Positions 3,515 through 19,567 of a DNA stretch of 64,000 nucleotides are shown piece after piece. The position numbers were made by a program, and so were the translations under genes. Under the pieces are notes generated by a model. That model saw only the letters and a program-made list of their open reading frames with translations, was not told the DNA's origin and ran no database searches. The stretch is from Dictyostelium discoideum (taxonomy: Eukaryota): positions 5,088,001 to 5,152,000 of the forward strand of contig CM000153.2 in the NCBI GenBank assembly GCA_000004695.1, in the 5' to 3' direction. Numbering within the stretch: the stretch's first letter is position 1; each line of letters begins with the position of its first letter.

Positions 3515-6500
3515 ATGGGGAATTCTCATATTAAAGGAAAAGAAGTGATCGATTTATCACCAAGAACTTTAGCATTAACAAGGTAATTTTATTCACTTGA
3601 AAAAAGAAATTAATAAATTTTATTATGAATTTGGCAATTTTTTATTTTTTAATGCAATTTCTAATTTTTTAATAGTTTTTGTCTTATTAAGAAAATTTTT
3701 TCATTAAAAATTGATTAAATCAATTAAAAATAAGAAATTACCTAATTTAATAATTTATAATAAATGAATCAATTTATTTTTCAAAAAAAAAAAAAAAAAT
3801 GAATATTAATTAAATGATTCAAAATATAAATACTAATACATATATTCAAATATAAATAATTTGACACACATAAATATGTTTATAGTGTTGATGATAAAGT
3901 TTGGTTAGGAATACCAGAGGAAAATCTTTTCAATGATTCATTTACAATTGAAAAGTATTATATGCTTCAATCAAAACCACTTTCAAATTTTAAAGATATA
4001 GATAGACTGATAATGATTGAACAAATTGAAGAAACATCATTCTTTTCATCATATAAAGATAGATCAAATTTACCATTACAACAACAATTACAACAACAAT
4101 TACAAGAACAACAACAACAGCAACAAGGTGGAATAAAATCAACTACTTCAACAACAACAACAACAACAACAACAACAACAACAACAACAACAACTACTCC
4201 ACCATCATCATCATCTACTACTGCAAATAGTGGAGCATCAAACAATAGCGATAATAGTAACAACAACAATAATAATAAAAATAATAATAATAATGCTGCA
4301 GGACAATCAGCAAACTCCACACAACCAAATAATAACAACAAAGACAATAATAATACTAATTCATCTTCAACAAATTCAATCAATAATAACAATACAAACA
4401 CTAATAATAATGGTAATAACAATAATAATAATAATAATCCAAATAGTTTATATAATAATAGTATAGCGGATTTCATAGAAGAATATAAAAATCGATCAAG
4501 TATACCAGTTTATTTAATTCCAGAAGATTCTTATAAAACTCACCAAAAAACATTATCATTTATCCTAGAGGATTTATACTCACAATCAAATGTAAACACA
4601 GCATATTATCAAACACTTTTACAAAAAAGATTATGTATTTTAAAAAGAATTCATTTAGCGTTAAAAAGAGAAATTGCAAGAAAAAAAGTAAAGTTTTATT
4701 ATTATTATTATTATTATTATTATTATTTTAAAAAATTTTAATACTAATTTTTATATATATTTTTTTAGTTATTCGATTCAATTTATCATTCAAAAGCAAA
4801 AACTAGAATTAAAAAAGTACAAATACCGCCAATTTCAATTAGAATAGCATGTAGATTATTTATAACGACATTACAAGAACAGGTTTTCGAACAAAAGATA
4901 TCATTATCAACATTGAAATCATTTAATTCAATGATAAAAGAATTACCATTATTATCAATGGCAGGTGAACCTCAAGATTGTATAGATAGTTTATCAAAAT
5001 GGTTACTATCTGCACTATCTAGTAATTCACCATTAATAAAGCGTGAGGCAATGGAATCATTAATTGGTTTATCATTATCACAGGGTTCATTAAGTTCAAT
5101 TTTATATTCTTTATTTTTAATTTTAACACCTTCAACAATCACAACAACAACAACAACAACAACAGCAACTACAACACCAACATCATCATCATCAACAACT
5201 ATTAATAGATCGAATAACACAAAAAATACTAGTAGTGGTAGTAGTACACCAACATCAACAATACCGACATCAAACAATAATATTATTGGATTAAGAATGT
5301 CTAGTTTAATTAAACAATTTGAACAATGGAAAGTTGATTTACCATTATCACCATTAAGTAGGGAATTATTATTTTCAACATGGCCAATTCAATGGAATGA
5401 TCATATTTCAGATGATTCATTATCATTTTTATCAACTCATCAATCAAATTCAACCAATATTATTGCAACGATAACATGTGATGGTGAATATATTTATATT
5501 CATGATTATTGTGGTTTAGTAAAGATTGGTACAGGTTATTTTGGTACACATCAAGGTAGAGTTTATATTAGAAAAGCAGATTTCTATCCAAAGGAAAAAG
5601 GTTGGTTAGCATTCATTGGTTCATCATTATATTATCGTTCACCTTCGATTGATCAATCAACTCTAATAGTTTTAAATCCATTGACATTGGAAGAAATTGG
5701 TAGAATTAATCAAGATGGTACTGGTTCAATTGAAACTGTAAATAATTTATCATTACCATTTGCACCAGAATGTCAAGAACAACATCATCATCATCATAAT
5801 TTTCATACATTTTCATCTTTTACAAATAATAATTCAAATAATAATAATAATAATAATAATAATAATAATAATATTAATAATAATACAAGATCACCAATAT
5901 TTACAGATGGTAGATATTTATATTTATTATCAATGCAAAGAAATAAACAATTTGTTGTGGATATGTATGATCCATTTGATCAATTTCAACATTATAAAAG
6001 AATTGAATTAAGATATTCTGATAATAATGATAGTAATGATAATGGTAATAGTAGTGGTAGTGGTAACTTTTATAATAATAATAATAATAATAATAATAAT
6101 AATAATAATAATAATAGTAATAATAATTATAATGAAAGAAATGGTAGTTATTATTACTATCAAAATAATGAAGAGTTTACAGCAGTTTTAAATCCAAAGA
6201 TATTAGAATTTGGATCATTTTATACCAATGGTCATTATTTAATGGTTGTATTACCACCACCATTTGGTAGCGATTATAATTATGACTCAAAATCATATAT
6301 TTGTAGAGCATTTTCATTGACTGATGGTAGTTTAATTGGAAATTATTGTTTAGAGAATCAGCCCATTGGTTTAGCTTCATTCTATGATTATTTAAATAAT
6401 GTAATTTGGAGTTATTCTTCATCAGAATCTGAAATTGGTAAATATGGGAATGAAGGATTTGGTCCAAAACATTCATTTCCTTCAACAATTGCACAATCAC

Positions 6501-18500: not shown

Positions 18501-19567
18501 GAGCAAGAGATGCAGGTGGACCATATAGAGATTGTATGACACAAATTGTAACAGATCTTCAAAGTAGAGATATGAATCTTTTTTTACCATGTCAAAATGC
18601 TCAAGGTGATGTTGCATTCAATCGTGATAAATTAGTACCAAACTCATCAGCAAATTCACCATTAGCATTGCAACTATTCGAATATATTGGTAAATTGATT
18701 GGTATAGCAATTCGTACTAAAAATTGTATTGAACTATCCTTACCTTCAATCGTATGGAAATCATTAGTTTGTGCAAAAGTTGATCGTCAAGATTTAAAAA
18801 CTATAGACAAATATATAACTAACTTTTTAGAATTATTAGAAGGTACCTCAAATGAAGAATCAAAACTCACCAATGAAGTATTTAGTGATTATATCGATCA
18901 AAATTTCACTGCTCATTCAATCGATGGGTCATTGATTGAGCTAATACCAGATGGAAAATCAATTCAAGTTCATTGGGATAATAGATTAGAGTATGCAACA
19001 TTATTGGAACAATATAAATTGGGTGAATTTAAATTACAAATTGATGCAATGGTTAAAGGTGTCTCAAGTATCATTCCATTGCATATTTTAAATATTTTCA
19101 CATGGCAAGAAATTGAACAACGTGTTTGTGGAATTCCAGGTTTAGATATTAAACTCTTAAAAAAACATACTCGTTATTGTGGTTTAATTCATTCTGAACC
19201 AAGGGTAACATGGTTTTGGAGAATACTCGAATCTTTTTCATCAGAGGAGCAAACTTTATTCTTACGTTTTGTTTGGGGTAGATCAAGACTACCTTCACCT
19301 TCAGAATTCACAAGTAATGTACAGTTTCAAATCTATCCATTCATTAAAAATGAATCTAGACTTTATGATGACGATTTCGAAGATCAAAGAAATAACTCAA
19401 ATGAAGATCATTATCAAATTCAAGATGAATATCTACCTGAAGCTCAAACTTGTTTCTTTACTCTCTCAATTCCAAACTACAGTTCATTGGACGTTATGAA
19501 AGAAAAACTTTTATATGCAATAACTTCATGTAGAGAAATTGATGCTGATTTCGTTCAACCAGAATAA
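3515..19567 (+). CDS. Giant HECT-domain E3 ubiquitin ligase (~5,222 aa) with SPRY, PH-like and CPH-like domains. Three exons: join(3515..3582,3886..4687,4769..19567)
   Basis: Seen in sequence: exon 1 is 'MGNSHIKGKEVIDLSPRTLALT' with a GTAATT donor at 3583. The acceptor is 'tatag' at 3885. This is in frame with ORF 3962..4741. A GTAAAG donor at 4688 and a 'ttttttag' acceptor at 4768 put it in frame with ORF 4913..19567. The C-terminus is a canonical HECT lobe ('...AQTCFFTLSIPNYSSLDVMKEKLLYAITSCREIDADFVQPE'). The catalytic Cys sits about 35 aa from the end. A SPRY/B30.2 domain lies near 11.8-12.2 kb ('WRFGLGYSSKDGNKICC...GKVFFTKNGKYLGTAF...YPVVAMSSGGSVGVNFGQQPF'). A PH-like domain lies near 15.4-15.85 kb ('IGHLMKQQKIIKLWKRIYVVLSSDCLFFYKP...EELLEWIQIINSA'). 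A CPH-like barrel lies near 14.04-14.27 kb. Three dispersed roughly 90-aa modules each begin with SPHPYP. Poly-N/Q/T tracts are extensive. Confidence 0.85.

Follow-up and report, generated by a model that had tools for sequence, protein, structure and literature searches.

A giant HECT ubiquitin ligase gene of Dictyostelium discoideum, very likely hectPH1, encodes three predicted cytosolic CUB domains

What are the three repeated modules of a giant ubiquitin ligase, and to which family does the protein that carries them belong? These questions are raised by a gene on the + strand of a 64-kb stretch of Dictyostelium discoideum DNA (contig CM000153.2, positions 5,088,001 to 5,152,000; the whole stretch is referred to as the window, and all coordinates below are window positions on the + strand). 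A sequence-only reading of the window had described the gene as a giant HECT E3 ligase that mixes features of HERC2/CUL7-type and HERC1-type enzymes and carries three modules beginning with SPHPYP, which it could not assign to a domain. Here, we report that these modules are CUB domains. We further conclude, with considerable confidence in the reading as a whole, that the gene is hectPH1, that its product is a 588-kDa cytosolic HECT ligase whose SPHPYP modules are cytosolic CUB domains, and that its scaffold is the one found in HECTD4-type giants.

Identity of the locus

The window has a GC content of 22 to 30% and contains poly-N/Q/T tracts, and five open reading frames (ORFs) near the gene correspond exactly to D. 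discoideum AX4 proteins (DDB_G0286945, DDB_G0286953, DDB_G0286955, DDB_G0286973 and DDB_G0286977), which establishes both the organism and the place on the chromosome. The longest ORF at the locus spans 4913-19567 and comprises 4,884 codons. Enumeration of the GT/AG intron combinations upstream of this ORF yielded a three-exon model with an open product of 5,222 amino acids (aa) and a predicted mass of 587.8 kDa. Asn and Ser account for 13.4% and 12.3% of its residues, respectively, and a simple entropy filter masked 2,410 of the 5,222 residues (about 46%) as low complexity. Orthologues were therefore sought with a query in which these tracts had been masked by entropy. Four dictyostelid orthologues (P0005 to P0008 in our numbering of the proteins compared) were found to be colinear along the full length, with 45 to 88% identity per block.

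In HECT E3 ligases, the catalytic cysteine belongs to a conserved C-lobe motif and precedes the C terminus by about 35 residues. A HECT domain was located at 18401-19564 (aa 4835-5222; Pfam PF00632, 214.2 bits; gathering threshold, 23.9; the match covers aa 4882-5212), and its best match in PDB was HECTD3 (9r85, E = 2.8e-48). The catalytic residue is Cys5185 (19451-19453), which lies in AQTCFF within EAQTCFFTLSIP, 37 residues ahead of the C-terminal residue. The claim of a 5,222-aa HECT E3 with a recognizable catalytic cysteine was therefore sound. The SPRY and PH domains also were found where the sequence-only reading had placed them. The SPRY domain (11798-12163, aa 2634-2755) scored 60.9 bits with Pfam PF00622 (gathering threshold, 26.3), and in PDB it matched the SPRY domains of RanBP9 and RanBP10 at an E value of about 1e-17. 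The PH domain (15398-15850, aa 3834-3984) contains a low-complexity insert and scored 50.2 bits with Pfam PH and 32.3 bits with PH_9.

HectPH1 is a named HECT ligase of this organism, and its primary paper is that of Pergolizzi, Bracco and Bozzaro (2017, J Cell Sci 130:551). It is a 588-kDa D. discoideum HECT ligase with SPRY and PH domains (PMC5666861). Because the organism, the mass (587.8 versus 588 kDa) and the content of HECT, SPRY and PH domains agree, the locus is very likely the already published hectPH1, and its product is called HectPH1 below. The gene thus is already known, although the sequence-only reading had not recognized it, and no new system is described here. Its gene ID is probably DDB_G0286931, which would agree with the IDs of its neighbors. 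The review makes no mention of CUB domains, of an N-terminal propeller or of an SH3-like barrel, and it calls the protein HERC1-like (PMC5666861).

The SPHPY modules are CUB domains

The SPHPY motif occurs exactly three times in HectPH1, at 8642, 15989 and 17174. A locally built, iterated hidden Markov model (HMM) was used to set the module boundaries. Module 1 lies at 8633-8953 (aa 1579-1685; E = 4e-32 with the local HMM), module 2 at 15980-16279 (aa 4028-4127; E = 1.4e-33), and module 3 at 17165-17458 (aa 4423-4520; E = 7e-37). The three share 27 to 28% mutual identity over about 100 aa, with F-D, W-G and other columns conserved far past the motif, so that their proposed homology extends well beyond the common start and greatly exceeds what chance would give. 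The orthologues retain all three at colinear positions.

An alignment of 27 sequences gave the signature E-S-x-H-P-Y ... I-P-G-A ... F-D-x-R-S/C-x-T ... D-x-L ... F-S-G ... I-x-G-D ... F-x-S-D-S ... W-G-F/Y-x-F, and the order of these motifs is that of classical CUB domains. When the module profile was compared with all PDB sequences, each of the 12 matches at E < 0.2 was a CUB protein; these included cubilin (1.4e-8), C1r (9e-7), PCPE-1 (1e-4), MASP-1/2/3 and neuropilin-1. Structural modeling pointed the same way. An AlphaFold2 model of module 1 reached a pLDDT of 87.2, and in a Foldseek search of PDB all 50 of the matches listed were CUB domains, with TMq values of 0.57 to 0.71. In the Pfam scan, module 3 scored 25.6 bits with the CUB family in its protein context (aa 4425-4513; gathering threshold, 21.4) and 20.7 bits when scanned alone, while module 2 alone scored 16 bits (E = 0.016). 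The matches of modules 2 and 3 cover positions 16 to 108 of the 110 in the profile, and no CUB match was found for module 1 by the same scan. Relatives of the module in the databases score as high as 86 bits with Pfam CUB, which argues that the subfamily is continuous with the canonical CUB family. On the strength of the profile matches in PDB, the Pfam match of module 3 and the fold model of module 1, we conclude that the SPHPYP modules, for which no assignment had been offered, are CUB domains. They are referred to as CUB1, CUB2 and CUB3.

Classical CUB domains are extracellular, are held together by two conserved disulfides and in many cases have an acidic triad that binds Ca2+. With the canonical extracellular members (PF00431: C1r/C1s, MASPs, cubilin, neuropilin, PCPE-1 and TSG-6), the HectPH1 modules share the fold, an SPxYP-type start and the F-D/E, D-x-L, F-x-S-D and G-F/Y order. 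They differ from them in lacking the two disulfides, in their distinctive H-P-Y signature and in being cytosolic. CUB1, CUB2 and CUB3 contain one, three and no cysteines, respectively, none of them at a canonical CUB position, and the median among related modules is one cysteine per copy. No signal peptide was noticed when the N terminus, which begins MGN, was inspected by eye. The absence of the CUB disulfides from a HECT ligase with no noticed signal peptide suggests that the modules are a cytosolic CUB variant. Two of the classical Ca2+ ligands, the Asp of D-x-L and the Asp of S-D-S, appeared together only in CUB3 when aligned by eye; CUB1 has no S-D-S Asp, and CUB2 has no D-x-L Asp.

An N-terminal beta-propeller

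A further conserved block was noted at 5285-6496 (aa 463-866), interrupted by two poly-N inserts and 54 to 79% identical among dictyostelids. Its motif (DG-x-Y-I-Y ... G-L-x-K-I-G-T-G ... G-T-x-G-x-V-Y ... L-Y-Y-R-S ... L-N-P-x-T-L-E-E) also occurs near the N termini of HECTD4 proteins, MYCBP2, P0010 and giant proteins with RCC1 repeats. The block resembles five-bladed propellers and not RCC1, and an RCC1-like identity for it was dropped. Its assignment to the beta-propeller fold class is well supported; the number of blades is more tentative. This domain had gone unnoticed in the earlier description of the locus.

Distribution of the CUB subtype

To place HectPH1 among the giant ligases, we considered first how widely its CUB subtype occurs. 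An exhaustive search of 1.84 billion cluster representatives with the module profile returned 4,572 matches at E ≤ 1e-3; tightening the cutoff to 1e-10 left 1,539, and to 1e-30, 220. Of 542 module copies, 345 keep the [ED]-[ST]-x-H-P start. A HECT domain is present in 43 of the top 148 matches, and these 43 proteins carry two to seven CUB domains in the order N-terminal block, CUB, post-CUB helical block, further CUBs, pre-HECT block and HECT domain, sometimes with a SPRY domain, an SH3-like barrel or a PH domain before the pre-HECT block. In HectPH1, the conserved pre-HECT block lies at 17489-17944 (aa 4531-4682), and an HMM of this block found colinear matches in P0009, P0010, P0001, the Naegleria protein P0011, the HECTD4-like protein P0013 and many of the multi-CUB HECT proteins.

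The multi-CUB HECT proteins of oomycetes and other protists have the same CUB subtype, the same block after CUB1 and the same pre-HECT/HECT unit as HectPH1. They differ from it in having four to seven CUB domains, usually no PH domain, and a SPRY domain in some cases only. The N-terminal block is present in many of them, including the Achlya hypogyna protein P0119, which is named HECT E3 ubiquitin ligase and is one of the named module-bearing proteins; it was not detected in the Saprolegnia protein P0068. The UniRef name of the Saprolegnia diclina protein SDRG_14984 is "CUB domain-containing protein", which shows that the databases already recognize a CUB domain in some of these relatives.

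The local HMM also detected the module in ZZEF1, in a HERC2-type protein, in two HECTD4-type proteins, in MYCBP2, in a giant HECT protein of Naegleria and in the giants with RCC1 repeats. The sequence-only reading had suggested a comparison with HERC2 and ZZEF1. One CUB domain of the same subtype was found in each, at 3577-3675 of the HERC2-type protein P0012 and at 1633-1730 of the ZZEF1 protein P0004. MYCBP2 (P0024) likewise has one, at 1973-2096, together with the N-terminal propeller motif that it has in common with HectPH1, and HERC2 also has an SH3_15 domain. Unlike these proteins, HectPH1 lacks the RCC1, DOC/APC10, ZZ, cytochrome b5, PHR and RING domains found among HERC2, ZZEF1 and MYCBP2. 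In the searchable literature, we came across no report of a CUB domain in HectPH1, HECTD4, HERC2, ZZEF1 or MYCBP2 and nothing relevant on intracellular, cytosolic or cytoplasmic CUB domains.

Three metagenomic proteins, each some 3,700 aa long (P0014, P0016 and P0017), combine RCC1 repeats with an N-terminal propeller, an SPHPY-type CUB domain, the post-CUB helical block and the pre-HECT block; P0014 also has part of a HECT domain at the end where it is cut. The three appear to be a HERC-like version of the HectPH1/HECTD4 scaffold.

HectPH1 and the HECTD4-type scaffold

Block-wise HMMs were built from five dictyostelid proteins. They matched two HECTD4-type proteins, P0013 from Strigamia and P0015 from Lepeophtheirus salmonis, at the propeller motif, CUB1, SPRY domain and HECT domain, in that order; P0013, but not P0015, also gave matches at the SH3-like barrel and the pre-HECT block. 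The two proteins are homologous to each other over their full length, and the NCBI name of P0015 is HECTD4. At the matching place, P0015 gave a subthreshold Pfam SPRY score of 24.1 bits. Like HectPH1, the HECTD4-type proteins therefore have the propeller motif, a CUB domain at about one quarter of their length, a divergent SPRY domain and a HECT domain. They differ in that no counterpart of the PH domain, CUB2 or CUB3 was detected in them, and their HECT domains are 28 to 30% identical to that of HectPH1. On this evidence, we read HectPH1 as a probable lineage of an old family of CUB-bearing giant HECT proteins whose named animal member, judged by architecture, would be HECTD4.

The main competing explanation is that HectPH1 is an unconventional, HERC1-like "large HERC" in which a PH domain stands in place of the RCC1-like domain. 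A review considers its HECT domain homologous to that of HERC1 and its SPRY domain shared with HERC1 and HERC2 (PMC5666861). In a crude neighbor-joining tree of HECT domains, in which HUWE1 fell outside as the outgroup and which took in no human sequences and no HERC1, the clade formed by HectPH1 with P0001, P0088, P0010 and P0137 was nested in a wide assemblage of giant HECT proteins bearing CUB domains, the HERC2-type sequence among them. The HECTD4 sequences, which had long branches, fell outside this clade. The RCC1-repeat giants P0014, P0016 and P0017, which have the same scaffold of propeller, CUB domain and pre-HECT block, also fit the HERC1-like reading. Against it, RCC1 repeats are the defining feature of HERC proteins, and no RCC1 family matched aa 291-5222 of HectPH1 in the Pfam scan at E ≤ 1; lacking these repeats, HectPH1 is by definition not a HERC. 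The comparison outside the HECT domain points in the same direction, with one CUB domain shared by the HERC2-type protein and four to six colinear blocks shared by the HECTD4-type proteins. We therefore consider the HERC1-like reading unlikely. The description of the protein as a mixture of HERC2/CUL7 and HERC1 was too loose, as there is no RCC1-like domain and the colinear block order best matches the HECTD4 type.

Several points weigh against placing HectPH1 with the HECTD4-type giants and against the reading of which this placement is part. Outside the HECT domain, the block matches with HECTD4 are weak (10 to 37 bits), and the crude tree places the HECT domain of HectPH1 no nearer to HECTD4 than to the HERC2-type protein, which has one CUB domain and the HECT domain in common with it. 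The Pfam support for the CUB assignment is borderline (modules 3 and 2 at 20.7 and 16 bits when scanned alone, and module 1 with no match), and the structure model was made for module 1 only. The naming of the locus as hectPH1 rests on organism, mass and domain content and not on sequence identity. With these points taken into account, the stronger proposal, namely that the SPHPY modules define a cytosolic, disulfide-free CUB subfamily that recurs in giant ligases and that HectPH1 is the amoebozoan counterpart of the HECTD4 scaffold and not HERC1-like, is put forward as a tentative one.

A GC-rich codon patch in CUB3

The third module had been singled out for its GC-rich codons. The coding sequence of the gene has a GC content of 0.265 and a GC content at third codon positions (GC3) of 0.107, and the GC3 of CUB3 is 0.235. 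Within CUB3, a patch at 17188-17212 reads CCT TCG GCC CGG GTC ACT AGC. The 21-mer that starts at 17188 has a GC content of 0.76, the maximum of the 15.7-kb coding sequence, and the patch contains the single CCCGGG (SmaI) site of the window. Codons 4433 to 4435 are TCG GCC CGG, which represent one of eight TCG codons (among 643 Ser codons), one of two GCC codons (118 Ala) and the sole CGG codon (160 Arg). When synonymous codons were shuffled, an equal GC density was reached in 9 of 500 trials. The observation on GC-rich codons therefore holds, as a modest effect: the patch is real and mildly unusual, and it could be due to chance.

These same features (the highest GC content of any 21-mer in the coding sequence, the only CCCGGG in 64 kb, the gene's only CGG adjoining rare GCC and TCG codons, and the outcome of the shuffling) would fit a patch that functions at the nucleic acid level, as a regulatory or structural element or as a repair or conversion tract. 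The effect, however, is small. It amounts to a run of four codons ending in G or C, and one further run at least as long exists elsewhere in the gene. The residues P, P, S, A, R and V force G or C at the first and second codon positions, and a P value of about 0.02 is weak for one feature singled out from 64 kb. A role at the nucleic acid level is quite improbable compared with chance codon choice.

A Mind-bomb-type SH3-like barrel

The sequence-only reading had placed a CPH-like barrel between the SPRY and PH domains. A small barrel does lie there (14021-14269, aa 3375-3457), and its sequence is conserved across dictyostelids, P0009 and the HECTD4-like protein P0013. Its identity proved to be different. 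With Pfam it matched only SH3_15 (18.7 bits, E = 0.0022), under the gathering threshold of 24, and a profile of the barrel matched the REP domain of MIB1 in PDB (4tse, E = 1.3e-4). Neither CPH (PF11515, the Cul7 family) nor MIB_HERC2 matched the barrel in Pfam even at E ≤ 10, and both identities were dropped. The segment is best described as a predicted SH3-like barrel of the Mind-bomb REP/SH3_15 type.

It is highly improbable that the SPHPYP modules represent a repeat of unknown or novel type and that the ligase mixes HERC2/CUL7 features (the CPH barrel) with HERC1 features (the SPRY domain): although Pfam misses module 1 and scores modules 2 and 3 below threshold when they are scanned alone, gives no match whatever for the equivalents in ZZEF1, the HERC2-type protein and HECTD4, and finds SH3_15 in a HERC2-type protein (P0012) that carries one such module, the profile and fold searches of PDB returned CUB domains only, module 3 exceeds the Pfam threshold in context, and the barrel has SH3_15 and MIB1 as its best matches, with none to CPH (PF11515) or MIB_HERC2 at E ≤ 10.

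Proposed function of HectPH1

From the N to the C terminus, the CUB-bearing scaffold that we assign to HectPH1 comprises the propeller, CUB1, the SPRY domain, the SH3-like barrel, the PH domain, CUB2, CUB3, the pre-HECT block and the HECT domain. The recognition modules are separated by helical regions and by long poly-N/Q/T linkers. As in other members of the HECT family, the C-terminal domain would accept ubiquitin from an E2 enzyme onto Cys5185 as a thioester and pass it to lysines of the substrate, and the interaction domains may select substrates or partners. By analogy with CUB domains elsewhere, those of HectPH1 may serve as protein-binding surfaces. CUB3, which lies directly upstream of the pre-HECT/HECT unit, could present substrates to it. 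The PH domain, and possibly an N-terminal lipid as well, might bring the ligase close to membranes.

Published observations on HectPH1 come from the genetics and localization of the protein. On two occasions, HectPH1 was recovered as a suppressor of the faulty aggregation of HSB1, a mutant of the TORC2 component Pia/Rictor, and loss of HectPH1 in the TORC2-defective mutant restores chemotaxis, PKB phosphorylation and development (PMC5666861). A fusion of the PH domain to GFP was enriched at the nuclear envelope and in the nucleus, with some label at the plasma membrane (PMC5666861). Since its loss restores signaling in a TORC2 mutant, HectPH1 is a negative regulator of cAMP/PKB signaling.

What the present analysis adds to the annotation of this protein is the three CUB domains, the N-terminal propeller, the Mind-bomb-type SH3-like barrel and a scaffold common to HECTD4 and the giant HECT proteins of protists. 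The CUB domains would be obvious candidates for substrate-binding surfaces. If the link with HECTD4 is true, the suppressor genetics of TORC2 and PKB in Dictyostelium would provide a model for the poorly understood HECTD4, and a tractable organism with a clear phenotype would be at hand in which to ask what such giant ligases recognize.

5' exons and the N-terminal leader

The sequence-only reading had joined two 5' exons to the main ORF, and our GT/AG model, reached by enumeration, gives the same two introns and the same 5,222 aa. Exon 1 (3515-3582, 68 nucleotides [nt]) starts with the ATG at 3515, ends at a GTAATT donor and encodes the peptide MGNSHIKGKEVIDLSPRTLALT; its last two bases open the codon for Ser23. 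It is followed by intron 1 (3583-3885, 303 nt, 12% GC, GTAA...ATAG). Exon 2 (3886-4687, aa 23-290) encodes the conserved N-terminal segment VDDKVWLGIPEENLF, poly-Q/T/N tracts and a conserved helical segment; it is 79 to 88% identical to its counterparts in dictyostelid orthologues, and a Pfam scan gave no match for it at E ≤ 0.001. After intron 2 (4688-4768, 81 nt, 4.9% GC, GTAA...TAG), exon 3 (4769-19567) encodes aa 291-5222 in one continuous frame and includes the stop codon, whose last base is 19567.

Comparative evidence supports this predicted structure. The exon 1 peptide is kept at the N termini of P0006, P0007 and P0009. The junction between exons 1 and 2 (...RTLALTS/VDDKVWLG..., with a slash marking the junction) is unbroken in P0006 and P0007, with about 79% identity, and that between exons 2 and 3 (REIARKK/LFDSIYHSK) is unbroken both in the orthologous proteins and in Cavenderia DNA. 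In Cavenderia fasciculata DNA (GL883029.1, L001 3573-3632), tblastn revealed MGN-HL-AKERIDLSPRTLTLT about 95 nt upstream of SVDDKVWLGIPEEN, which belongs to the SVDDKVW exon, so that the position of the intron is conserved there along with the peptide. Reading through intron 1 leads immediately to a stop codon, and an unspliced start for exon 2 was ruled out because the frame upstream of it is full of stops.

Two of the orthologous models deviate at this end. The annotated Cavenderia model, P0008, has no exon 1 and begins with MTRDNNKYYF instead; judging from the genomic match, its first exon is probably wrong. P0005 lacks the VDDKVWLG segment.

The leader MGNSHIKGK is present in the gene model and had been called myristoylation-like. 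N-myristoylated proteins start with Met-Gly and have a small amino acid as residue 6, followed by a basic one at position 7-8. The MGNxxxK pattern (Gly2 and Lys7) is kept in D. discoideum, P0005, P0007, P0009 and the Cavenderia DNA, and Acytostelium has Ser2. Small residues are preferred at position 6, which is T, S or A elsewhere; D. discoideum has Ile there. The resemblance thus is borne out at Gly2 and Lys7 in most orthologues and not at position 6 of the D. discoideum protein, and myristoylation of HectPH1 is possible.

Other features of the protein and the window

A small conserved segment, termed barrel A, lies at 12650-12877 (aa 2918-2993). It is 45 to 71% conserved, among the dictyostelid orthologues only, and neither the Pfam scan nor a profile search of PDB found a relative.

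Elsewhere in the window, no tRNA genes were found. Three further ORFs lie downstream on the + strand: one of 403 aa with EGF/ComC-like and TIG-like matches (24184-25395), one of 437 aa with an S1/RRP5-type RNA-binding domain (33188-34501), and one of 1,673 aa with ankyrin repeats at its C terminus (38978-43999). All three are probably parts of spliced genes. The highest GC content of the window, 0.345, is found at positions 1-1000.

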